The notes beneath the pieces are model-generated. The model had not been told where the DNA came from. It saw only the letters and a program-made list of their open reading frames with translations, and did no database searches. Both the position numbers and the translations under genes were made by a program. Below, piece by piece: positions 3,386 to 32,444 of a DNA stretch of 32,908 bases. Source of the DNA: a phage. The first letter of the stretch is position 1, and every line of letters begins with the position of its first letter. The stretch lies in the NCBI GenBank assembly GCA_021421665.1, contig GCA_021421665.1_4698.1, one strand, 5' to 3'.

Positions 3386-3646
3386 ATGATTAAATACACT
3401 GCTTATCAATTAACTAAAGACCGTAAGATAGGTGTTGAGGTTAAAGCTTGGAATGAAGGACACATCACTGTAGTTATAGAGTGTCTCCAAGACAATGGTG
3501 TGATGCTAAGAAGCTACCGTTGCTTCACCAAATTACGCTGCAAGGATTTAACTGAAGAATTATTCTTACGTTGTATTGTTGAATCTATTAAACTTATTAG
3601 ACCCTACGCCAAGCAAGTTGTAGGTAATGTCACAGTAGTACATTGA
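3386..3646 (+). CDS. hypothetical protein (86 aa)
   Basis: ORF-track ORF 3350..3646; ATG at 3386 is preceded by GAGG at a suitable distance; in-frame alternatives at 3350 (GTG) and 3359 (ATG). Confidence 0.5.
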   Translation: MIKYTAYQLTKDRKIGVEVKAWNEGHITVVIECLQDNGVMLRSYRCFTKLRCKDLTEELFLRCIVESIKLIRPYAKQVVGNVTVVH

Positions 3647-7836: not shown

Positions 7837-8836
7837 GCTTCGCAGCTTGTACAAAGACTCCGAGGTACTTGATGCAATCGAGCAAGCTACCGACGAGAAA
7901 GGTAATGTTAATTATAAGGAGATGGCACGGGTGCTATCGTGTCATCCTGTGGGTAAGAAGATTACCCGCCAGTTGGCTCGATACTGGCACGGTCAATTCA
8001 AGAAGACCAAGAAGAATGGTGGTTATTACCAGACCCTTCTGCAAGAAGATAAGCGTATCAAAGAAGAGCGTAGGCTCAGGACTCCTGACCGCTACGAGGA
8101 TTTGGCTATTGTACCACTGCCTGACTCGCCTCATCGAAGTGTACTGGTAATCCCTGATACCCATGCGCCTTATGAGCATCCAGATACTTTAGAGTTCCTT
8201 GCAGCCGTGGCAGCACGTTATCGCCCAGACACAGTGGTACATCTTGGGGATGAGGCAGACAAACATGCCTTGTCATTCCACGACTCTGACCCCAATCTGG
8301 ATAGTGCTGGAGTGGAGTTAGAGAAGGCTCGTGTATTCATGCACAAATTGCACAAGATGTTTCCTGTGATGCGCCTGTGTCATTCTAACCACGGCTCTAT
8401 GCACTTCCGCAAGGCAAGCGCTAAGGGCATCCCTGTGCAATATCTACGTACCTATCGTGAGGTCTTCTTCCCGAATGGAGGTGGCGATCAGTGGGATTGG
8501 CAGCATACGCATGTACTTGAGTTGCCGAATGGCGAACAGGTAGCGTTCAAGCATCAACCTGCTGGCGTTGTCCTAGCAGATGCAGCGCATGAGCGTATGA
8601 ATCTTGTGTGTGGTCATCTGCATGGTAAGATGTCTGTGGAGTATGCACGTAATACTCATGAGCAGTATTGGGCTGTGCAGGGTGGCTGTCTGATTGATGA
8701 GTCGTCTCGTGCATTTGCCTATGGTCGTGAGTCTAAGTACAAGCCAGCATTAGGCTGTGTGGTTATTCTGGAGGGTGTACCACACATTGTCCCGATGCAG
8801 ACCAATAGCGACAATCGCTGGGTTGGTAAGATTTAG
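7829..8836 (+). CDS. calcineurin-like metallophosphoesterase
   Basis: Motifs VIPDTHAP (D-x-H), HLGDEAD (GD), SNHG (GNH-like) and CGHLHG; start placed at TTG 7829 after AGGAGG, with in-frame ATG 7805 as alternative. Confidence 0.7.
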   Translation: MGKLRSLYKDSEVLDAIEQATDEKGNVNYKEMARVLSCHPVGKKITRQLARYWHGQFKKTKKNGGYYQTLLQEDKRIKEERRLRTPDRYEDLAIVPLPDSPHRSVLVIPDTHAPYEHPDTLEFLAAVAARYRPDTVVHLGDEADKHALSFHDSDPNLDSAGVELEKARVFMHKLHKMFPVMRLCHSNHGSMHFRKASAKGIPVQYLRTYREVFFPNGGGDQWDWQHTHVLELPNGEQVAFKHQPAGVVLADAAHERMNLVCGHLHGKMSVEYARNTHEQYWAVQGGCLIDESSRAFAYGRESKYKPALGCVVILEGVPHIVPMQTNSDNRWVGKI

Positions 8837-8853
8837 TTGACACTATAGAACAA
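8831..8853 (+). promoter_or_regulatory. SP6-type phage RNAP promoter ATTTAGTTGACACTATAGAACAA
   Basis: Overlaps the stop codon of the preceding gene; predicted +1 G at 8848; a hairpin (aagggta...taccctt) follows within the first 30 nt of the transcript. Confidence 0.75.
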
Positions 8854-9618: not shown

Positions 9619-10562
9619 ACATCTTCCAATTCTTAGGTCTTCCAGAAGACCACCGCAATCACCCCTTCATGCTGGTGAAGCATCGCGGTGAAGTACCTGA
9701 GAAGAAACTTACTTTTCCATGTTATGCACAGGTGAAACGTGATGGAATATTTAGTGCTGTTGTGGTACGTAATGATGGTGCTGTTGCCATCTTTGGTCGT
9801 ACTGGTAAGAAGCTCGCAAATGTTGAAGACTTGGAAAAGTTATTTAGTGTATTTCCTGTCGGGTTGTATCTTGGTGAGTTGCAATCTATGGCTGTTGATA
9901 TATATCTTGAAGCTCTATCAGGGGTAGTAAATCCCAATCGCACTGAGCCACTCGATTTCATAGGCCAGCAGATTAAAGACAACCTGTATATCGACTTCTT
10001 CGATATGTTAACTATTAAGGCATTCCATGATGGATTCACTGATGTTTCTTATCTCAAACGTTACGATGCTTTACATCGTCGCATCGGCGCTCATCTTAGC
10101 GGGAACAACGCTATCCTCCCTATTACTCCTTGCCATAATGAGCGAGAAGTTGAAGCGTTTGCACAAGAGCAAATAGATGCAGGCCGAGAAGGTGCTGTGT
10201 TTAAACTGGACTGCGACTATGAAGCAGGTCACAAAGGTTATCGTCAGACTAAAGAAGTCCGTAAGGTAACTTATGACCTTACTTGTATTGGCTTTGAAGA
10301 AGGTAAAGGTAAGTACAAGGGTAAGGTAGCTAACCTCATTTTCAAATGGAAAGGAGGCAAGACAATCAAAGCTATGTTAGGTAAAGGGTGGACTCATGCA
10401 GATGCAGAACAGATGTTCCACGATATTAAACATGGCGGACGATTGAATGTCATTGGTAAAATCTTTGAAGTAAAAGGTCTTCAGGATTCAAGCAAGGGCA
10501 ACATTCGTCTGCCCAAAGCGGGAGAATTAAGACATGACAAAGATGAACCAGATTTCTTTTGA
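9615..10562 (+). CDS. ATP-dependent DNA ligase (T7 gp1.3-like)
   Basis: Adenylation motif KxDG present (AQVKRDGIF); AAGGAGG SD before ATG 9615. Confidence 0.88.
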   Translation: MNIFQFLGLPEDHRNHPFMLVKHRGEVPEKKLTFPCYAQVKRDGIFSAVVVRNDGAVAIFGRTGKKLANVEDLEKLFSVFPVGLYLGELQSMAVDIYLEALSGVVNPNRTEPLDFIGQQIKDNLYIDFFDMLTIKAFHDGFTDVSYLKRYDALHRRIGAHLSGNNAILPITPCHNEREVEAFAQEQIDAGREGAVFKLDCDYEAGHKGYRQTKEVRKVTYDLTCIGFEEGKGKYKGKVANLIFKWKGGKTIKAMLGKGWTHADAEQMFHDIKHGGRLNVIGKIFEVKGLQDSSKGNIRLPKAGELRHDKDEPDFF

Positions 10563-10749
10563 TAACATGAAGGCAACTCGTGCAGTTGAGGTGGCAGAAG
10601 CTATCTTCGAAACCTTATCCTGTGGCATGGAAGTGCCATATAACTTACTGGCTGATGCAGAAGAATTAGGTCTTTCTGTAGAAGCTATCCAAGAGAAAGT
10701 AGAGGAACTTTATGGTACAGATGAAGAAGAAACCGACGATTTCATTTGA
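10534..10749 (+). CDS. small acidic hypothetical protein (71 aa)
   Basis: ORF-track ORF with GGGAGA 8 nt upstream; acidic C-terminus ...DEEETDDFI; overlaps ligase end by 29 nt. Confidence 0.45.
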   Translation: MTKMNQISFDNMKATRAVEVAEAIFETLSCGMEVPYNLLADAEELGLSVEAIQEKVEELYGTDEEETDDFI

Positions 10750-10753
10750 AGGG

Positions 10754-10882
10754 ATGGAGATGCTTAAGAGGGTTCTCACTCCTTCCTCCCCTAAGCTAAC
10801 TAAGGCTCATGAAGAATTAATAGTTGATGAGGTGAAGCGTTACATCATGGAGTGTGTCAAGGCACAACTGGTGGTTCAATGA
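10754..10882 (+). CDS. small hypothetical protein (42 aa)
   Basis: Stop overlaps the start of the next gene in an ATGA arrangement (10879-10882); below ORF-track cutoff; weak SD. Confidence 0.3.
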   Translation: MEMLKRVLTPSSPKLTKAHEELIVDEVKRYIMECVKAQLVVQ

Positions 10883-11340
10883 TACGTCCCGCTTCCTTCC
10901 TAGATATTCCTGAGATTATAAACCTTGGGAATAAGTATGTGGAAGAGGAAGTCAAGGTAGTGGCTCATCACTCAGCCTCATGGAATGCAGAACAAAGCGC
11001 ACACAACCTTTGTGCATCTCTAAGTAGAGAAGATTTATTCCTGTGGGTGGCTGTTGATGAAGGGCAGATTGTAGGGTTCCTATGGGCTGGCTATCATGAG
11101 TTAGCCCCTTGGACACCTGTAAGAGTTGCCTCTGATATTCTCTTCTACATTGTACCAGAGAGGCGAGGGACACTGCTTGGTATGCGCCTTATCAAAGCAT
11201 TAAAGCAATGGGCCAGTGAAAGCAAGTGTGCCGAGGTTCGCCTGTCTATCGCCTCTGGTATTAATGAAGAACGTGTCGGACGTATGTATAAGCGACTTGG
11301 CTTTGAACCGTTTGGCACTGTGTATAACCTGAAGTTCTAA
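10879..11340 (+). CDS. GNAT-family N-acetyltransferase
   Basis: GNAT-like core QIVGFLWAGYHEL...ERRGTLLGMRLIKALKQWA...RMYKRLGFEPFG; start at ATG 10879 (ATGA-coupled) preferred over ORF-track start 10852. Confidence 0.65.
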   Translation: MIRPASFLDIPEIINLGNKYVEEEVKVVAHHSASWNAEQSAHNLCASLSREDLFLWVAVDEGQIVGFLWAGYHELAPWTPVRVASDILFYIVPERRGTLLGMRLIKALKQWASESKCAEVRLSIASGINEERVGRMYKRLGFEPFGTVYNLKF

Positions 11341-11349
11341 GGAGATAAC

Positions 11350-11556
11350 ATGGGTGTTGTAAAGAAAGCATTTAAGGCTGTAGGTCTTGCTCAAGATGCA
11401 CCACGTATTGAAGCTAAAGTACCAGCGCAGCAGCTTGAGCGTCAACCTGAAACTGAAGCAGAAGATATCCAGATTGGTGCAGGGGATGATGCCACTGCCT
11501 CTGCAAAAGGTAAGCGCGGACTTGTCCGTCCAGTGGCCTCTAGCCTGAAGGTGTAA
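11350..11556 (+). CDS. small basic virion protein (T7 gp6.7/gp7.3-like)
   Basis: AAGGAGA SD; MGVVKKAFKAV... with C-terminal GKRGLVRPVASS; sits directly before the portal gene as in T7. Homology recalled, not verified. Confidence 0.5.
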   Translation: MGVVKKAFKAVGLAQDAPRIEAKVPAQQLERQPETEAEDIQIGAGDDATASAKGKRGLVRPVASSLKV

Positions 11557-11557
11557 T

Positions 11558-13108
11558 ATGAAACAGAGCACAGATTTGGAGTATGGAGGTAAGCGGTCTA
11601 AGATACCTAAGCTATGGGAGAAGTTCTCCAATAAACGTAGCTCTTTCCTTGATAGGGCAAAGCATTACTCCAAATTAACCTTGCCCTATCTGATGAATGA
11701 CAAAGGTGATAACGAGACTTCGCAGAATGGATGGCAGGGTGTAGGTGCTCAGGCAACTAATCATCTGGCCAACAAGCTAGCGCAAGTGCTATTCCCTGCG
11801 CAGCGTTCCTTCTTCCGTGTAGACTTAACTGCACAAGGTGAGAAGATTCTTAACCAGCGTGGCCTGAAGAAGACAGAACTAGCTACTATCTTTGCTCAAG
11901 TAGAAACACGGGCGATGAAAGAGTTAGAGCAACGTCAATTCCGTCCTGCTGTAGTAGAAGCATTCAAGCATCTTATTGTTGCTGGTAGCTGTATGCTATA
12001 CAAGCCGAGTAAGGGTGCAATCAGTGCTATCCCAATGCATCACTACGTAGTTAACCGTGACACCAATGGCGACCTGTTAGACATTATCTTACTGCAAGAG
12101 AAAGCCTTACGTACATTTGACCCAGCTACACGTGCTGTAGTGGAGGTAGGCTTGAAAGGTAAGAAGTGCAAGGAAGATGACAGCATTAAGCTGTACACAC
12201 ATGCTAAGTATCTTGGTGATGGCTTTTGGGAACTTAAGCAATCTGCTGATGATATTCCTGTAGGTAAGGTGAGTAAAATCAAATCAGAAAAGCTACCTTT
12301 CATTCCACTGACTTGGAAGCGAAGCTATGGTGAGAGTTGGGGTCGCCCTCTTGCAGAGGATTACTCCGGTGATTTGTTCGTTATCCAATTCCTATCTGAA
12401 GCAGTTGCCCGTGGTGCTGCACTGATGGCAGACATTAAGTACCTGATTCGTCCTGGTGCTCAGACTGATGTTGACCACTTTGTTAACTCTGGCACTGGTG
12501 AGGTTGTCACTGGTGTAGAAGAAGATATCCATATTGTACAGTTAGGTAAGTATGCAGACCTCACACCTATTAGCGCGGTCCTAGAGGTGTACACTCGCCG
12601 TATTGGTGTTGTCTTCATGATGGAGACAATGACACGCCGTGACGCCGAACGTGTTACTGCTGTAGAAATCCAGCGAGATGCGTTAGAGATTGAGCAGAAC
12701 ATGGGTGGTGTATATTCCCTCTTCGCTACTACTATGCAATCGCCAGTAGCGATGTGGGGTCTGCTGGAGGCAGGAGAGTCCTTCACTAGTGACCTAGTGG
12801 ACCCTGTGATTATCACAGGTATTGAAGCTTTAGGGCGCATGGCTGAGTTGGATAAACTGGCTAACTTCGCTCAGTATATGTCACTGCCATTACAATGGCC
12901 TGAGCCTGTCCTAGCTGCTGTGAAATGGCCTGACTATATGGATTGGGTGCGTGGTCAAATCTCTGCTGAACTGCCGTTCCTTAAATCTGCTGAAGAGATG
13001 GCACAAGAACAGGAAGCGCAGATGCAAGCACAGCAAGCACAGATGCTTGAAGAAGGTGTGGCTAAGGCTATACCGGGTGTAATTCAACAAGAACTTAAGG
13101 AGGCGTAA
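11558..13108 (+). CDS. portal (head-tail connector) protein, T7 gp8-like
   Basis: N-terminal block WQGVGAQATNHLANKLAQVLFP resembles recalled T7 gp8 WQAVGARGLNNLASKLMLALFP; 516 aa; position before scaffold and capsid. Confidence 0.9.
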   Translation: MKQSTDLEYGGKRSKIPKLWEKFSNKRSSFLDRAKHYSKLTLPYLMNDKGDNETSQNGWQGVGAQATNHLANKLAQVLFPAQRSFFRVDLTAQGEKILNQRGLKKTELATIFAQVETRAMKELEQRQFRPAVVEAFKHLIVAGSCMLYKPSKGAISAIPMHHYVVNRDTNGDLLDIILLQEKALRTFDPATRAVVEVGLKGKKCKEDDSIKLYTHAKYLGDGFWELKQSADDIPVGKVSKIKSEKLPFIPLTWKRSYGESWGRPLAEDYSGDLFVIQFLSEAVARGAALMADIKYLIRPGAQTDVDHFVNSGTGEVVTGVEEDIHIVQLGKYADLTPISAVLEVYTRRIGVVFMMETMTRRDAERVTAVEIQRDALEIEQNMGGVYSLFATTMQSPVAMWGLLEAGESFTSDLVDPVIITGIEALGRMAELDKLANFAQYMSLPLQWPEPVLAAVKWPDYMDWVRGQISAELPFLKSAEEMAQEQEAQMQAQQAQMLEEGVAKAIPGVIQQELKEA

Positions 13109-14034: not shown

Positions 14035-14057
14035 ATTTACTGGACACTATAGAAGGG
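14035..14057 (+). promoter_or_regulatory. SP6-type phage RNAP promoter ATTTACTGGACACTATAGAAGGG upstream of the capsid gene
   Basis: Predicted +1 G at 14052; the transcript begins with hairpin gggaga-AATG-tctccc at 14055-14070. Confidence 0.8.
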
Positions 14058-15307: not shown

Positions 15308-15315
15308 TACCTATG

Positions 15316-15348
15316 CCCTATCTACCTTGCGTAGGTAGGGTTCTTTTT
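15316..15348 (+). terminator. terminator-like hairpin (ccctatctac / gtaggtaggg) followed by TTCTTTTT
   Basis: 10-bp stem with one G-U pair, then a T-tract; immediately after the capsid gene, the position T-phi occupies in T7. Confidence 0.6.
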
Positions 15349-15361
15349 GTTAGGAGGATTC

Positions 15362-16099
15362 ATGCCTGTAATTAGACAAACAAGTAAAGTAGGCAACCTG
15401 ATGGAGGGTGTTGCCTTCCAGATTATTGATAGTAAACTTGAAGCGGTCAACTTATGTATGCGAGCTATTGGTCGTGAGGGTGTGGATTCTCTCGACTCAG
15501 GGGATCTCGATGCAGAAGATGCAAGCAAGATGATTGATATCGTGTCCCAGCGATTCCAGTACAATAAAGGTGGTGGCTGGTGGTTCAACCGCGAACCTAA
15601 CTGGCAACTTGCACCAGACACCAACGGTGAGGTTAACCTTCCTAATAATTGCCTTGCTGTGTTGCAGTGTTATGCTTTAGGTGAGAAGAAAGTACCCATG
15701 ACTATGCGTGCAGGTAAGTTGTACTCTACTTGGAGTCACACATTTGATATGCGTAAGCACGTAAATGCTAATGGTATGCTTCGTCTTACCTTGCTTACCC
15801 TCCTGCCATATGAGCACTTACCTACGAGTGTGATGCAAGCAATTGCATACCAAGCTGCTGTGGAGTTTATTGTGTCTAAGGATGCAGATAAGACTAAACT
15901 TGTCACCGCACAACAGATTGCCTCTCAGCTTCTTATGGATGTACAATCTGAACAAATGTCACAGAAGAGATTGAACATGCTGGTGCATAACCCCACCCAA
16001 CGCCAGTTCGGTATCATGGCAGGTGGCTCTCAGAATGTACCTGCTTACTCACACTCTCCATATGATAGTTGGACCCTTCGTCCTTGGGAGGATCGTTAA
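15362..16099 (+). CDS. tail tubular protein A (T7 gp11-like)
   Basis: TAGGAGGA SD before ATG 15362 (ORF-track start 15347 rejected); 245 aa; position between capsid and gp12-like gene. Confidence 0.8.
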   Translation: MPVIRQTSKVGNLMEGVAFQIIDSKLEAVNLCMRAIGREGVDSLDSGDLDAEDASKMIDIVSQRFQYNKGGGWWFNREPNWQLAPDTNGEVNLPNNCLAVLQCYALGEKKVPMTMRAGKLYSTWSHTFDMRKHVNANGMLRLTLLTLLPYEHLPTSVMQAIAYQAAVEFIVSKDADKTKLVTAQQIASQLLMDVQSEQMSQKRLNMLVHNPTQRQFGIMAGGSQNVPAYSHSPYDSWTLRPWEDR

Positions 16100-18504
16100 T
16101 GGAAGTACAAGGTTCATTAGGTAGACAAATCCAAGGCATAAGCCAGCAACCTCCAGCAGTGCGCTTAGATGGTCAGTGTACGGCTATGGTCAACATGGTC
16201 CCTGACGTAGTGAACGGAACACAATCCCGCATGGGTACAACTCACATTGCAAAGGTACTTGATGCAGGCACTGATGATATGGCTACTCATCATTATCGCA
16301 GGGGTGATGGTGATGAGGAGTATTTCTTTACTTTAAAGAAAGGACAAGTACCTGAAATCTTCGATAAGTATGGGCGTAAATGTAATGTAGCTTCTCAAGA
16401 TGCACCTATGACATATCTCAATGAAGTGGTTAACCCAAGAGAAGATGTGCAGTTCATGACTATTGCAGATGTGACATTTATGCTTAATCGTCGAAAGGTA
16501 GTTCGCACAAGGGAAGATCGTTCCCCTAATGTAGGTGCTACAGCTTTAGTCTTTTGCGCTTATGGTCAATATGGTACTATATATCAAATCATTATTAACG
16601 GTGCGGTGGCAGCAGAATATCGCACTAAAGATGGGGGAAGTGCAGACCACGTAGAGACAATACGAACAGAGGTTATAGCAGAACAGTTGTTTGTTAAGCT
16701 ACAGCAATGGTCCGGTGTAAGTGCATATGATGTATATCGAATGGGGACCACTATCGTTATCACCAGTAAATCCGGTGATACAGAGTTCACAGTAAACACA
16801 GAGGATGGTGCTAAAGGAAAAGATTTAGTTGCCATTAAATACAAGGTTAGCTCCACTGATCTTTTACCCAGTAAAGCGCCGGAAGGTTATAAAGTACAAA
16901 TATGGCCCACTGGAAGTAAACCTGAATCACGTTACTGGCTACAAGCCGAGAAGTCAGAGGGAAACCTTGTTACATGGAAAGAGACTATAGCTGCCGATGT
17001 TAAACTTGGTTTTGATAAAGGAACCATGCCTTACATTATTGAACGCACAGGAATCATTGATGGTATTGCGCAGTTTAGGATTAGACAAGGCGATTGGGAG
17101 GACCGCAAGGTAGGCGATGACCTTACTAACCCCATGCCCTCCTTCATTGATGATGAAGTTCCTCAGAAAATTGGTGGTATGTTTATGGTACAGAACCGCT
17201 TGTGCTTTACGGCAGGTGAAGCAGTCATTGCATCTCGTACTTCTTACTTCTTTGATTTCTTCCGATATACGGTGATCTCTGCTCTGGCCACAGACCCTTT
17301 CGACATCTTCTCCGATGCAAGTGAGGTTTATCAATTAAAACATGCAGTAACTCTTGACGGAGCTACGGTATTGTTCTCTGATAAATCCCAGTTCATCTTG
17401 CCGGGAGATAAGTCACTAGAGAAGGCTAATGCTTTACTTAAACCAGTAACAACTTTTGAAGTAAACAATAAGGTTAAGCCTGTTGCCACTGGTGAATCTG
17501 TGATGTTCGCTGCAAGTGATGGTGCATACTCTGGTGTGCGAGAGTTCTATACTGATTCTTATAGTGACACTAAGAAGGCACAGGCAATCACTAGCCATGT
17601 GAATAAACTCATTGAAGGCAACATTATAGGCATGGAGTCTAGTACGAATGTGAATAGACTACTTGTTACGACGGATAAGCATCGTAATATAATCTACTGT
17701 TATGACTGGCTATGGCAGGGCACAGATCGTGTTCAATCGGCTTGGCATATATGGGAGTGGCCTTTGGGTACAAAGGTGCGAGGTATGTTTTATTCTGGTG
17801 AACTGCTTTATCTGCTTCTTGAGAGAGGCAATGGTGTATATCTGGAGAAGATGGACACTGGTGATGCACTTACCTACGGTTTAAGTGATCGTATTAGAAT
17901 GGATAGGCAGGCAGAGTTGGTCTTCAACTATTTCAAAGCAGAAGATGAATGGATCTCTGAACCACTACCTTGGACCCCCACCCACCCAGAATTGTTGGAT
18001 TGTATCCTAATAGAGGGCTGGAACCCATATGTTGGAGGCTCTTTCTTATTCAGGTATAATTCCAGTAATAACACACTGTCTACAACTTTTGATATGCATG
18101 ATGGTGATCACGTAAAAGCAAAGGTTATTGTTGGACAACTTTACCACCAAGAGTTTGAACCAACACCTGTGGTTATCAGGGACAATCAAGACCGCGTATC
18201 ATATATTGATGTGCCTGTTGTGGGGTTGGTTCACCTCAACCTTGATATGTATCCCGATTTCTTAGTGGAAGTTAAGAATGTGAAGAGTGGTAAAGTGCGC
18301 AGAGTATTAGCGTCTAACCGCATAGGTGGTGCTCTCAACAATACAGTAGGTTATGTTAAACCTAGGGAAGGTGTCTTCAAGTTCCCACTGAGAGTTAAGA
18401 GCACTGATGTTGTTTATCGTATTATTGTAGAGTCGCCTCACACATTCCAGCTTCGTGATATTGAATGGGAGGGGAGTTATAATCCAACCAAGAGGAGGGT
18501 CTAA
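16099..18504 (+). CDS. tail tubular protein B (T7 gp12-like)
   Basis: N-terminus MEVQGSLGRQIQGISQQPPAVRLDGQ resembles recalled T7 gp12 MALISQSIKNLKGGISQQPDILRYPDQ; 801 aa; start overlaps upstream stop. Confidence 0.9.
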   Translation: MEVQGSLGRQIQGISQQPPAVRLDGQCTAMVNMVPDVVNGTQSRMGTTHIAKVLDAGTDDMATHHYRRGDGDEEYFFTLKKGQVPEIFDKYGRKCNVASQDAPMTYLNEVVNPREDVQFMTIADVTFMLNRRKVVRTREDRSPNVGATALVFCAYGQYGTIYQIIINGAVAAEYRTKDGGSADHVETIRTEVIAEQLFVKLQQWSGVSAYDVYRMGTTIVITSKSGDTEFTVNTEDGAKGKDLVAIKYKVSSTDLLPSKAPEGYKVQIWPTGSKPESRYWLQAEKSEGNLVTWKETIAADVKLGFDKGTMPYIIERTGIIDGIAQFRIRQGDWEDRKVGDDLTNPMPSFIDDEVPQKIGGMFMVQNRLCFTAGEAVIASRTSYFFDFFRYTVISALATDPFDIFSDASEVYQLKHAVTLDGATVLFSDKSQFILPGDKSLEKANALLKPVTTFEVNNKVKPVATGESVMFAASDGAYSGVREFYTDSYSDTKKAQAITSHVNKLIEGNIIGMESSTNVNRLLVTTDKHRNIIYCYDWLWQGTDRVQSAWHIWEWPLGTKVRGMFYSGELLYLLLERGNGVYLEKMDTGDALTYGLSDRIRMDRQAELVFNYFKAEDEWISEPLPWTPTHPELLDCILIEGWNPYVGGSFLFRYNSSNNTLSTTFDMHDGDHVKAKVIVGQLYHQEFEPTPVVIRDNQDRVSYIDVPVVGLVHLNLDMYPDFLVEVKNVKSGKVRRVLASNRIGGALNNTVGYVKPREGVFKFPLRVKSTDVVYRIIVESPHTFQLRDIEWEGSYNPTKRRV

Positions 18505-19232
18505 TGGCTATAGGTTCAGCCGTTATGGCTGGTATGTCTTCTATTGGCAGTATGTTTGCAGGTAGTGGTGCAGCAGCCGCTGCTGGAGGGACTGCCGCAA
18601 CAGTAGGTGGCGGAGGTTTACTAGGTTCCGTGGGAGGTTTCCTAAGTGGTTCCACTGGTGGCTTCTCCAATGCAGGCTTGCTTAGTGCAGGTATGCAAGG
18701 TCTAGGGCTTATAGGTAACCTTTTTGGTGGAAGGGATGAAGCCAAAGCTATGAAGAGGGCTCAGGAGGAGCAATGGCGGCAGCAGTTAATTGCTACGCAG
18801 GAGGCATACAAAACAGTGGCAGATGCAGAACGCTCTGCTGCTAAACAGTACCATGCCGACGCAATAAGTAATCAGGCTTCTCTGCTACAGCAGCGAGCAC
18901 AGGTTGCATTGCTTGCTGGTGCTACTGGTACTGGTGGTAACTCTGTGTCTTCTATGCTAAACGACTTAGCAGCAGAAGGCGGCAGGAACCAGAGTACAAT
19001 TATTGATAACTATGAGAATCAGAAGATTAACTTCACTAATCAGCTTAAGTCTATTCAGCGTGGCGGACAGATGCAAATGCGTGAGTTTAAGAAGCCTTCT
19101 GCTGTAAGCACCTTGGTTCAAGGTATCCCGAGTCTGGCTTCTGCCTATGTAACAGGTAGTAAATCGGGTATGGCATTAGGTAAAGCATTAACTGATTCTC
19201 GTACCTATTCATCTGGAACAAGAGGTATTTAA
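18504..19232 (+). CDS. internal virion protein (gp14-like)
   Basis: 242 aa with Gly/Ala-rich N-terminus and Gln-rich helical region; translationally coupled within the structural block. Confidence 0.65.
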   Translation: MAIGSAVMAGMSSIGSMFAGSGAAAAAGGTAATVGGGGLLGSVGGFLSGSTGGFSNAGLLSAGMQGLGLIGNLFGGRDEAKAMKRAQEEQWRQQLIATQEAYKTVADAERSAAKQYHADAISNQASLLQQRAQVALLAGATGTGGNSVSSMLNDLAAEGGRNQSTIIDNYENQKINFTNQLKSIQRGGQMQMREFKKPSAVSTLVQGIPSLASAYVTGSKSGMALGKALTDSRTYSSGTRGI

Positions 19233-29243: not shown

Positions 29244-29528
29244 ATGGCTAAATATGGTGAAGGTTCTGTTACTGGTCAGGCTTTTCGAGTAAAAGCAGTA
29301 CAAACTATTGCAACGGCAATCCCTATGCCTGTTGTTAAAGAAGCAGACCTTAAGAGTAAAGATCACCCTATAAACATCAAACACCTGTCAGGTAAACAGA
29401 AAGGTGCAATGGTTGCTCTTGAGAAAGCGGACACAACCTTACATATTGCTGTTGCACGTGGTAGTGAACCAACAGACCCTTGGGATGTAACTGGTATGGA
29501 ATCGGACGCTGTTACTCCGGCAGGGTGA
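29244..29528 (+). CDS. hypothetical protein (94 aa), paralog B of a tandem pair
   Basis: GAGGAGGA SD; shares SGKQKGAMVALE and a VTPAG C-terminus with the preceding gene. Confidence 0.6.
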   Translation: MAKYGEGSVTGQAFRVKAVQTIATAIPMPVVKEADLKSKDHPINIKHLSGKQKGAMVALEKADTTLHIAVARGSEPTDPWDVTGMESDAVTPAG

Positions 29529-30454: not shown

Positions 30455-30477
30455 ATTTAGGTGACACTATAGAAGAG
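30455..30477 (+). promoter_or_regulatory. canonical SP6 promoter ATTTAGGTGACACTATAGAAGAG upstream of the tailspike genes
   Basis: Exact 23 of 23 identity to the SP6 promoter as used in cloning vectors; predicted +1 G at 30472. Confidence 0.9.
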
Positions 30478-30548
30478 ATAGAGTGGCGATCATTTGGTCG
30501 CCTTTACTCAAGGTGCTCATGGTGGGCGCTTTAAGTAAAGGAGGAAAC

Positions 30549-32444
30549 ATGGCTCTAACTAGACTAACGTCAGCCTTGGTTAGTATCAAGTCTTCCGTGG
30601 TAGGTACTGTCAAGAGAACCATTGCTAACAAGTTTGACCTTGATTTATCTCTGGAGGATTTTGGTGCAGACCCAACTGGCAATACAGACTCTACCGCGGC
30701 TGTTATAGCAGCCCTTAGTAGTCGTAAACGTATAGTCCAAAAAGGTGGAGGTATCTACCGACTGGATGGCGCGGTTGTTGTCCCAACAGGTGATGTCCAT
30801 TTTGAAGGGGCAGGTATAGGCAAGACTGTCTTCAGATTCAACCACTTCACACAAGGTTTCAGACTTGGTGATGAGGCTGACTCAGGTAACAGGTATATTC
30901 ATGTCTTCCGCAAAGCCACTATTGAACGGCCAAACTATGCATCATACACTGGACAGATTAGCCCTAAATCTTTGTATATCTCAAACTCTAGAAACGGATT
31001 GGTAGAAGATATTGATCTGTCAGGTTCTATCGGTTACGGGATACAGTTTGATTATTCAGACACCTACGTAATGGTTCGCAGGTGTTATGTGCATGATCAT
31101 TTCGGTGGTAGCTCCGTGGCGGTTGGTACTGATGGTATCCACTTCTATCGAACAAAAGACTTCTGGGCTATTGAAAATACAGTGGCTCGTGTTGGTGACG
31201 ACGCAATCAGTTGTGGTACTTTTAACTTTGCCTACCCTGTGAGTAATGGTCATATCTTATTTAACAAGATATACAATACACAGGGCACCATCAAGATTTA
31301 CACCAAAGTATCTGGTGTTACAGTCAAGGGTAACTATATTGATGGGTCAGTACAGGGCGGTGTGTATATCACGAACGATGCAAACGCACCAGAAAACGCG
31401 GCTATTAATGACATTACAATAGAAGACAACAAGTTCTACAACATCTTCCCAAACGTGGAAACAAATATAGAGGCTGGACCTTTACGTATCCGCGGTTGGA
31501 AGGGTGGTGCTTGCTCTTTTAACAATATCATTTTCAAGGACAACTACTGCTCAAACACTTACGCTGGAATTAACTTTCTTGTTAACTCTGCCAACCAACG
31601 ACTCAGAAACCTCTATGTAGAGGGGAACATCTTCTTTGTTCAAGCCTTGGGTACAACAAACTCAAGATCTGCAATAATGCTACAGTGCTGTGATGAGAAC
31701 TTAGTTGTTCGCAATAATACCTTCAAAGATACATCTGGTGGTCTCTTGCAGATTGACGCTGTTGGTTCTGGTTTCACTGCAGAACCTTCATCCAATGGTA
31801 GGTTTACCATCACAGGCAACCAAGTGGAAGGATGGAACAAATCAGTAACGGTTGGTCGTAGTGCGCTACGCGGTATCTTCTTACGGCAAAACTTATATGA
31901 CTGCATTGTTGAGATAACCAATAACAAACTTCAATATCAGTACACTAGTGGCTCTGCCGCAAAAGGTCGTGCAGTTGAGACGGCTGGTGTTCACCCTGAT
32001 AGCAGGTTTGAGAACAACGTACTAGATGGTAATGTGTTGTTTAACTCAAACAATGGCGGATACTTTGGTTCAAACAAAACCATAGCTGACCTAACAAGTG
32101 CACCGGGGCCGCGCTCTGGCACACACCAGCGTGGTAGCTCTTTGAGGACAGAAGTACCTACAGCTACAAGGTACAACGAGTATCTGATAGTTAAATCTGG
32201 AACTCTTGATACTATTTCCGCAACAGTAACAATAGACTCTGGTTCATACTCAGGGACTATAACATCTGGCTCATTACTACCCGGTGTATATGTGACAGTC
32301 GCAGGGTTGTCTGATGTGTTACGTGTATTGCGTGTGGCTGGTAGCTCTGTGTTATTTGACTCAAAGGCATCAGCTACTGTAACAGATGCTGCAACAGTAA
32401 ACTCCAACCCAACATGGTTGGCCCGTTCATTAGTACCAGCATAG
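30549..32444 (+). CDS. tailspike protein 1 (631 aa), probable beta-helix capsule depolymerase
   Basis: AAAGGAGG SD before ATG 30549 (ORF-track start 30483 has none); N-terminal DFGADPTGNTD motif typical of pectate-lyase-fold tailspikes; repetitive Asn/Gly/Thr-rich beta-strand-like sequence. Confidence 0.8.
   Translation: MALTRLTSALVSIKSSVVGTVKRTIANKFDLDLSLEDFGADPTGNTDSTAAVIAALSSRKRIVQKGGGIYRLDGAVVVPTGDVHFEGAGIGKTVFRFNHFTQGFRLGDEADSGNRYIHVFRKATIERPNYASYTGQISPKSLYISNSRNGLVEDIDLSGSIGYGIQFDYSDTYVMVRRCYVHDHFGGSSVAVGTDGIHFYRTKDFWAIENTVARVGDDAISCGTFNFAYPVSNGHILFNKIYNTQGTIKIYTKVSGVTVKGNYIDGSVQGGVYITNDANAPENAAINDITIEDNKFYNIFPNVETNIEAGPLRIRGWKGGACSFNNIIFKDNYCSNTYAGINFLVNSANQRLRNLYVEGNIFFVQALGTTNSRSAIMLQCCDENLVVRNNTFKDTSGGLLQIDAVGSGFTAEPSSNGRFTITGNQVEGWNKSVTVGRSALRGIFLRQNLYDCIVEITNNKLQYQYTSGSAAKGRAVETAGVHPDSRFENNVLDGNVLFNSNNGGYFGSNKTIADLTSAPGPRSGTHQRGSSLRTEVPTATRYNEYLIVKSGTLDTISATVTIDSGSYSGTITSGSLLPGVYVTVAGLSDVLRVLRVAGSSVLFDSKASATVTDAATVNSNPTWLARSLVPA

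Follow-up and report, generated by a model that had tools for sequence, protein, structure and literature searches.

A GNAT-fold acetyltransferase gene paired with a small overlapping gene upstream of the portal gene in a K1-5-like phage

The GNAT gene and its family

The phage DNA analysed here, called the window below, is a stretch of 32,908 nt (GenBank assembly GCA_021421665.1, contig GCA_021421665.1_4698.1). Our subject is a gene on its plus strand, 10879..11340, which encodes a GNAT-fold N-acyltransferase of 153 aa, the orthologue of K1-5 gp27 and SP6 gp28, together with the small gene whose end it overlaps. The open reading frame (ORF) runs from the ATG at 10879 to a TAA at 11338-11340, and the protein begins MIRPASFLD. 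A GTG at 10852 could extend it by 9 aa, yet all 42 of the 42 family members begin at MIRP or MIRQ, so the start is placed at 10879. An earlier note on this DNA had described a 153-aa GNAT-fold protein encoded just upstream of the structural genes, and it was right on both counts. The Pfam model Acetyltransf_1 (PF00583) scores 39.3 bits against a cutoff of 20.7 (E 9.2e-10), and Acetyltransf_7 and Acetyltransf_10 are likewise above their own cutoffs, so that three Pfam GNAT models are passed. The PHROG family phrog_1249, annotated as acetyltransferase, matches residues 1-151 (E 4.4e-54). An AlphaFold model built on 42 homologues has a mean pLDDT (predicted local distance difference test) of 90.9, and a Foldseek search of the PDB with this model gave 848 matches at E<=1e-3, the top 50 of which are all GNATs. 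The ratio of non-synonymous to synonymous differences (pN/pS) in the gene is 0.25 over 26 distinct loci. As for the position, a 68-aa gp7.3-like gene follows directly and then the portal gene, which starts at 11558. The observation of a GNAT gene at this place is correct and goes beyond chance.

Nucleotide matches of a 1.3-kb query around the locus assign the window to Vectrevirus, as a K1-5/K1E-like coliphage (Autographiviridae, Molineuxvirinae). Matches were found in 80 phage records, and in 78 of these they covered 80% or more of the query; the top ones, at 93% identity, came nearly all from Vectrevirus. The GNAT protein is 84-98% identical to the Vectrevirus proteins, among them K1-5 and K1E gp27, and 75% identical to SP6 gp28, and its length, its neighbours and its ATGA junction with the small gene are all shared with them. 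K1-5 gp27 differs by a 22-aa duplication in the loop between α1 and α2, which the window protein does not have; the K1-5 protein (L001:2980-3507) is 175 aa long, the 22-aa insertion repeats HHSASWNAEQSA, and the other aligned relatives are without it.

The family reaches far beyond these phages. A tblastn search with the protein found it in 249 phage records, with identities of 61-99% in phages of Escherichia, Salmonella, Klebsiella and Proteus, about 40-44% in those of Pectobacterium, Erwinia and Pantoea, 32-38% in those of Vibrio, Pseudomonas syringae, Aeromonas and Marinomonas, and about 29% in Lentibacter/Roseobacter podoviruses. PHROG 1249 also takes in the proteins of the SP6-like phages, Era103, Vibrio phage AS51 and Lentibacter phage ICBM2. 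In a profile search of 1.84 billion representative proteins the number of clusters found was 7 at E<=1e-30 and 1227 at E<=1e-10. Those that we sampled lie mostly on contigs of phage-genome size (in 4 of 10 clusters the longest is 34-49 kb), and just two of them carry names, a Caudoviricetes protein and a GNAT N-acetyltransferase. The label acetyltransferase is already found on K1-5 gp27 (RefSeq EPKV1_gp30), SP6 gp28 and many GenBank records. The sequence comparisons thus describe a known, annotated and widely conserved phage gene, not a new one. A role in O-acetylation of the K1 capsule was rejected by reasoning, since the gene occurs equally in phages of Salmonella, Klebsiella, Proteus, Erwinia, Vibrio and Pseudomonas.

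Cofactor loop and enzyme class

In the AlphaFold model the secondary structure elements follow the canonical GNAT order, β1-α1-α2-β2-β3-β4-α3-β5-α4-β6. The loop between β4 and α3, R96-G97-T98-L99-L100-G101 (11164..11181, plus strand), corresponds to a relaxed form of the acetyl-CoA binding motif A and aligns with RGGGIG of a Brucella GNAT, PDB entry 4j3g; entry 4jwp is listed with the same sequence, and by its title it is the acetyl-CoA complex of this protein. R96 is invariant in close relatives, present in 141 of the 144 sequences in an alignment of the wider family (the window protein and 143 representatives) and found in 8 of 8 proteins spanning 26-96% identity. G97 shows almost no variation, and at position 101 both close and distant relatives have either G or A. 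The textbook form of this pyrophosphate-binding motif, Q/R-x-x-G-x-G/A, has a central glycine that varies within the family and is not kept here. Y137 (11287..11289, plus strand) lies in helix α4, in motif B (..MYKRLGF..), and alignment and model put it at the usual position of the GNAT general-acid tyrosine; this position is Y in 106 and F in 16 of the 144 sequences, and the helix itself (residues 130-139) is present in the model. S123, G127 and G141 are also conserved. The earlier note had named loss of the acetyl-CoA motif in an alignment as the result that would speak against a GNAT; we found R96, G97, G or A at 101 and Y137 retained, and the claim stands. By the alignment, motif A is relaxed, not absent, and the protein appears to keep the parts needed for acyl-CoA binding; catalysis is likely.

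The substrate is another matter, and here the earlier note had judged that none could be inferred. This is also our result, the nearest structures being scattered over polyamine, phosphinothricin/amino-acid, RimI-like and Naa60 enzymes. The structural comparison with RimI-type, aminoglycoside and toxin GNATs that the note had proposed gave a GNAT fold, with no curated family cutoff passed. One explanation would be a small-molecule acetyltransferase, whose substrate in the infected cell would be a polyamine, an analogue of an amino acid or a compound resembling an antibiotic. The best sequence matches in the PDB are in part of this kind, namely the polyamine acetyltransferase DpA (7.6e-5 with the family profile), SSAT/thialysine enzymes and enzymes of the PA4866/phosphinothricin and ArsN types, next to the Brucella GNAT, which is labelled RimI-like (1e-6), and there are weak NCBIfam matches to ArsN1 and AAC(6') models. 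However, every NCBIfam match is far below its curated cutoff: 26 against 140 bits for AAC(6'), 27 against 170 for ArsN1a and 23 against 86 for RimI. By fold, Foldseek returned Naa60, PAT/BAR/ArsN, DpA and AAC enzymes interleaved, and the protein acetyltransferases, Naa60 and RimI-like, are equal to the small-molecule enzymes by fold score. Moreover, a fixed place beside virion genes across podovirus families would be unexpected for a metabolic or resistance gene. We therefore consider a small-molecule substrate unlikely. An antibiotic-resistance function, brought up by a record in which a relative is called an aminoglycoside acetyltransferase, was rejected on the AAC(6') scores. The cellular small GNATs in general (DpA/SSAT polyamine, PAT/BAR/ArsN, RimI, Naa60) share the fold and the cofactor loop with the window protein, with TM-scores of 0.7-0.8, but they are 15-25% identical to it, and it falls short of all the curated family cutoffs, which means that their substrate specificities cannot be transferred to it.

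The small gene upstream and its junction with the GNAT gene

Directly upstream lies a small protein gene, most likely of 56 aa (10712..10882, plus strand), which corresponds to K1-5 gp26, SP6 gp27 and phrog_6507. The earlier note had seen a micro-ORF of 42 aa here. Such an ORF does begin at the ATG at 10754, but the gene most likely starts at the conserved ATG at 10712, and this for three reasons. The ATG at 10712 has a GAGG Shine-Dalgarno sequence 6 nt upstream, whereas the purine run at 10754 is immediately adjacent to the ATG. The N-terminal M-x-x-x-KKKPTI of the longer protein is kept in 27 of 27 SP6-like loci, and the Met at 10754 is replaced by W in SP6 and by Y in a Proteus phage, in which the Met at 10760 is also replaced, by L. 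Finally, the 42-aa version spans only positions 15-57 of PHROG 6507, which has a length of 57 aa. In annotated genomes the gene is 56 aa long in K1-5 and KAW1A4500, and 42 aa in SP6. Over the 26 distinct loci its pN/pS is 0.33 in its own frame as compared to 1.4 and 1.5 in the two shifted frames; judged by this pattern, it is a real protein-coding gene under purifying selection. No match was found for the 56-aa protein in Pfam, NCBIfam or PADLOC.

The gene is the last in a chain of overlapping small genes (10534-10882). The one before it encodes 71 aa (10534..10749, plus strand; homologue of K1-5 gp25, phrog_5860) and shares 29 nt with the ligase gene and 38 nt with the 56-aa gene. Synonymous divergence is lower in these doubly coding 38 nt, with a pS of 0.34 as compared to 0.58, as expected under dual constraint.

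The small gene and the GNAT gene meet in an ATGA stop/start overlap (10879..10882, plus strand). The sequence at 10877-10882 is caATGA, in which the GNAT start codon (10879-10881) shares its TG with the TGA stop (10880-10882) in a different frame. This junction is found in 31 of 32 SP6-like sequences, the sole exception being TAATG. The earlier note had taken the overlap as translational coupling. The overlap itself is real, but it is routine in these genomes: in KAW1A4500, the closest annotated relative, 20 of the 57 gene junctions overlap, 11 of these by 1 or 4 nt, so that the ATGA alone is weak evidence of a special relationship. Better evidence comes from distant subfamilies, in which the pair is kept. 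In Era103, Vibrio phage AS51 and Pseudomonas phage Njord, with GNATs 33-41% identical, the ORF directly 5' again overlaps the GNAT start, in AS51 and Njord also by ATGA, and in AS51 this small ORF is all that is annotated between the ligase and GNAT genes. When a hidden Markov model (HMM) of the small protein was run against all ORFs of twelve loci, the ORFs 5' of the GNAT gene were the two best matches, individually non-significant, and a profile-profile comparison gave a P of 3.7e-4 over 48 of the 56 columns, end to end. On this remote similarity, the small gene and the GNAT gene look like a conserved unit. A programmed frameshift that would fuse the two was rejected, no slippery heptamer being found by eye before the stop.

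A small gene that overlaps a GNAT gene by ATGA, the pair being conserved, is also the usual layout of GNAT toxin-antitoxin systems, and an explanation could be that the protein is a toxin of the TacT/AtaT type with a small antitoxin, or an anti-defence acetyltransferase of the AcrVA5 type. The 56-aa protein, being without a Pfam or NCBIfam domain, has no RHH or DUF1778, though. There is no GNAT-toxin or Acr structure among the PDB sequence matches (E up to 1) or the top 50 folds, and PADLOC matched the GNAT once, weakly and uninformatively (E 0.025), and the small proteins beside it not at all. The genes also lie within a transcription unit with portal and scaffold in a strictly lytic phage, where such overlaps are routine. 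We regard a toxin or anti-defence function as very improbable; the anti-defence role that the earlier note had allowed for finds no support in the PADLOC result or in the placement of the gene in a middle/late unit.

Gene order and transcription

The window has the gene order DNA polymerase, ligase, small genes, GNAT, small gene, portal, scaffold and capsid, with further genes between polymerase and ligase, followed by tail tube, internal virion proteins, terminase and tailspike, which is the order of K1-5 and of KAW1A4500. The small gene after the GNAT gene (11350..11556, plus strand) encodes a 68-aa gp7.3-like virion-assembly protein that matches phrog_1320 at 1.7e-10, the same PHROG that T7 gp7.3 matches at 1e-29. 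The portal (head-tail connector) gene at 11558..13108, plus strand, is the first large structural gene.

Five matches to the promoter of an SP6-type phage RNA polymerase were found in the window, at 3646, 5692, 8831, 14035 and 30455, all on the plus strand, where none is expected by chance. The one heading the GNAT unit (8831..8851, plus strand) has 2 mismatches to the SP6 consensus. Between it and the next promoter, at 14035, lie the genes for a DUF3310 protein, the ligase, two small proteins, the GNAT, the gp7.3-like protein, the portal and the scaffold, and therefore the GNAT gene is probably transcribed together with those for ligase, gp7.3-like protein, portal and scaffold. This would imply that the GNAT is expressed with the procapsid components and not with the early genes. 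The only strong terminator-like hairpin in the stretch is at 15315-15341, directly 3' of the major capsid gene; it has 11 pairs followed by a T-run, and KAW1A4500 has an annotated terminator at this position.

Proteins in the same slot of other podoviruses

The order small ORF, protein of 130-160 aa, gp7.3-like protein and portal is widely recurrent. In LUZ19 it is gp27, gp28 (Rac), gp29 (virion protein) and gp30 (portal), with an overlap of 1 nt between gp27 and gp28, and Achromobacter phage Axy23 and Pantoea phage LIMEzero have the slot order of LUZ19. The T7-like Ghunavirus phages have gp6.5, gp6.7, a GNAT, gp7.3 and gp8, with gp6.7 and the GNAT overlapping by 4 nt, and T7 itself has 6.7, 7, 7.3, (7.7) and 8, with an overlap of 1 nt between 6.7 and 7. 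Homology of the 56-aa protein to T7 gp6.7, Ghunavirus gp6.7, LUZ19 gp27, Axy23_031 and LIMEzero ORF35 was rejected on negative BLASTP and HMM comparisons, which also gave no support for an apparent likeness of its N-terminal helix to LUZ19 gp27. In the phage phiPsa17 the protein of the gene 7 slot was not detected in virions, and gp6.7 and gp7.3 were (PMC4517105).

Rac, gp28 of LUZ19 and phiKMV, is a GNAT of about 155 aa that sets off cleavage of the alpha subunit of the host's RNA polymerase and needs its acetyl-CoA pocket to do so (PMC7552054). Its slot is the same as that of the window GNAT, with a small ORF overlapping the start and a small virion protein and the portal following; the position expected of the Rac family, directly 5' of the small virion protein and the portal, is also where the window GNAT is found. 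The main rival to the explanation that we favour below is a host takeover like that by Rac, in which the GNAT would acetylate host proteins and thereby shut down, for example, transcription once the phage polymerase rules. The Rac and window families cross-match weakly and reciprocally in PHROG, each being the other's best or near-best match outside its own family, and hhalign aligns them at E 2.8e-6. However, BLASTP of the window GNAT against LUZ19 Rac showed no similarity, Rac belongs to PHROG 3986, which the window GNAT matches only at E 0.059, and the small proteins upstream of the two are unrelated. Direct homology was therefore rejected; the similarity is at the profile level, perhaps from the shared GNAT nature, which accounts for much of it, and by sequence the window GNAT is not a member of the Rac family. 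Furthermore, the Rac effect is reported as confined to Phikmvvirus: LKA1, a phage that has a homologue at the corresponding position, does not cause alpha cleavage (PMC7552054). SP6-like phages also carry their RNA polymerase early, unlike phiKMV, so that the logic of a late switch differs. The earlier note had mentioned host takeover as possible, and it does have one precedent in the same slot, but with a protein outside the Rac family and an effect reported as genus-specific we find such a role rather doubtful for the window GNAT.

T7 gp7, the 'host range' protein of 133 aa, occupies the same slot, between gp6.7 and gp7.3 and upstream of the portal. Its predicted fold is that of a GNAT. It differs in that it has no Pfam match, its hhalign E to the window GNAT is 0.09 (not significant), and the model is without helix α4 and the R...G/A loop; because these are missing, T7 gp7 may be unable to bind acetyl-CoA. 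An uncharacterised family, PHROG 5167, is weakly matched by both Rac (0.031) and T7 gp7 (0.01) and is perhaps another family that occupies this position in the genome.

A second slot, and a possible role in virion assembly

Members of the family also occur at a different place in the virion module. In Lentibacter phage ICBM2 (Zobellviridae) the PHROG 1249 protein (E 6e-27; 29% identity over 97% of the window GNAT) sits between the tail-tube gene and those for internal virion proteins B and D, and Alteromonas phage ZP6 has an acetyltransferase in this same place after the tail-tube gene. According to Hardies et al. (PMC4819975), many podoviruses carry a small non-structural gene with acetyltransferase matches in this slot, and T7 internal virion protein A (IVP-A, gp13) also matches an acetyltransferase; they describe IVP-A as required for morphogenesis and not retained in the virion, and report homologues of it for epsilon15 and P22. 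IVP-A as described there is thus small, non-structural, acetyltransferase-like and tied to the virion module, as we propose for the window GNAT. The difference is in the location, since the window GNAT lies upstream of the portal and not after the tail-tube gene, 5 kb upstream of the IVP-A slot. In the window this slot holds no gene, because the homologue of T7_gp14 (IVP-B, 18504-19232) starts where tail tubular B (16069-18504) ends, the two sharing a stop/start base; in LUZ19, too, the gene for the first internal virion protein comes after the tail-tube gene with nothing additional in between.

It is conceivable that the GNAT fold serves here for binding only, as a catalytically silent scaffold or assembly chaperone, as may hold for T7 gp7 or gp13. 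Conservation does not extend to the central glycine of motif A, T7 gp7 has the fold without the loop or helix α4, and Hardies et al. present IVP-A as an assembly protein, with no mention of catalysis in the accessible portion of the paper (PMC4819975). However, R96, G or A at 101, mostly Y137, S123, G127 and helix α4 are retained down to 26% identity, which is the pattern expected if cofactor binding is under selection. A silent protein thus seems to us quite unlikely.

The explanation that we tentatively favour, with distinctly less than even confidence, is that the window GNAT is a non-structural acetyltransferase of the assembly phase which acts on, or chaperones, virion proteins, with the 56-aa protein as its partner. 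It would be the SP6-group member of a set of podovirus GNAT-fold proteins encoded beside virion genes, either in the gene 7 slot (T7 gp7, phiKMV Rac) or in the IVP-A slot, that of the assembly factor for internal or ejected virion proteins. Its action on lysine-rich virion proteins, small or internal, would be acetylation, or at the least binding and chaperoning, at the time when procapsid and tail are being built, and the 56-aa partner, produced in coupled amounts, would be a cofactor, an adaptor or a substrate. Loss of the GNAT would then be expected to lower the infectivity of the particles and leave their number unchanged.

Several points weigh against this explanation. Synteny in these collinear genomes can persist without any functional linkage, and the same transcription unit holds genes of DNA metabolism (ligase, DUF3310 protein), so that 'late' is approximate. 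Of the slot proteins, Rac alone has a published activity, and this is directed at the host (PMC7552054); the role of T7 gp7 may be non-catalytic and hence not transferable to the window GNAT. T7 gp7 and Rac match each other weakly (hhalign probability 13%, a conservative value, the two profiles being thin, with 1 sequence for Rac and 11 for T7 gp7 from word-indexed homologue searches), and a single lineage is not established. Comparison of the window GNAT family with T7 gp13 (IVP-A, PHROG 308) by hhalign was not significant, with an E of 0.096 for the single sequence and of 0.19 and 0.005 for family profiles; the link to IVP-A consequently rests on PHROG membership and synteny. The fold matches do not favour protein over small-molecule substrates, and literature searches for functional work on the SP6/K1-5 gene or any phrog_1249 member found none.

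A bolder version would be that the GNAT is one component of a two-part enzyme, the other being the 56-aa protein as adaptor or substrate, and that the SP6-type GNAT, Rac, T7 gp7 and IVP-A all descend from one ancient podovirus acetyltransferase with the task of modifying those small or internal proteins that enter the host by ejection. We hold this to be a speculative and improbable extension, but if true, acetylation of virion proteins would be a general and so far unnoticed requirement for podovirus infectivity, which would also explain the old 'host range' phenotype of T7 gene 7. Whichever explanation applies, a GNAT-fold gene is kept beside virion genes in several podovirus groups, and Rac alone among them has been studied, its mechanism being incomplete. 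SP6, K1-5 and K1E are genetically tractable and of use in therapy against K1 E. coli. The GNAT gene itself is ordinary; the analysis adds a comparative view and, for T7 gp7, a predicted GNAT fold, which offers a tangible way into a gene that has for decades carried no more than the label 'host range'.

Other features of the window

Minus-strand ORFs beneath the GNAT gene, such as 10952-11173, were rejected as spurious, since the pN/pS pattern suits the plus-strand frames and close relatives annotate plus-strand genes exclusively. An Rfam search of the whole window for structured RNA gave zero matches. The gene at 29244-29528 is, by synteny, the homologue of K1E/K1-5 gp42, which one paper labels a 'putative acetyl-CoA acetyltransferase' (PMC4837284); its product has no match in Pfam, and the label looks unfounded from the sequence.

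The tailspike ORF (30483-32444), listed with a GTG start, encodes 653 aa with a right-handed β-helix (Pfam Beta_helix, 5e-13), and in this position the closest annotated relative encodes an endosialidase, which is longer. Because of this difference, the receptor specificity of the window phage may not be that of the K1 phages. The promoter at 30455, a perfect 21-nt consensus, lies directly 5' of the tailspike gene.

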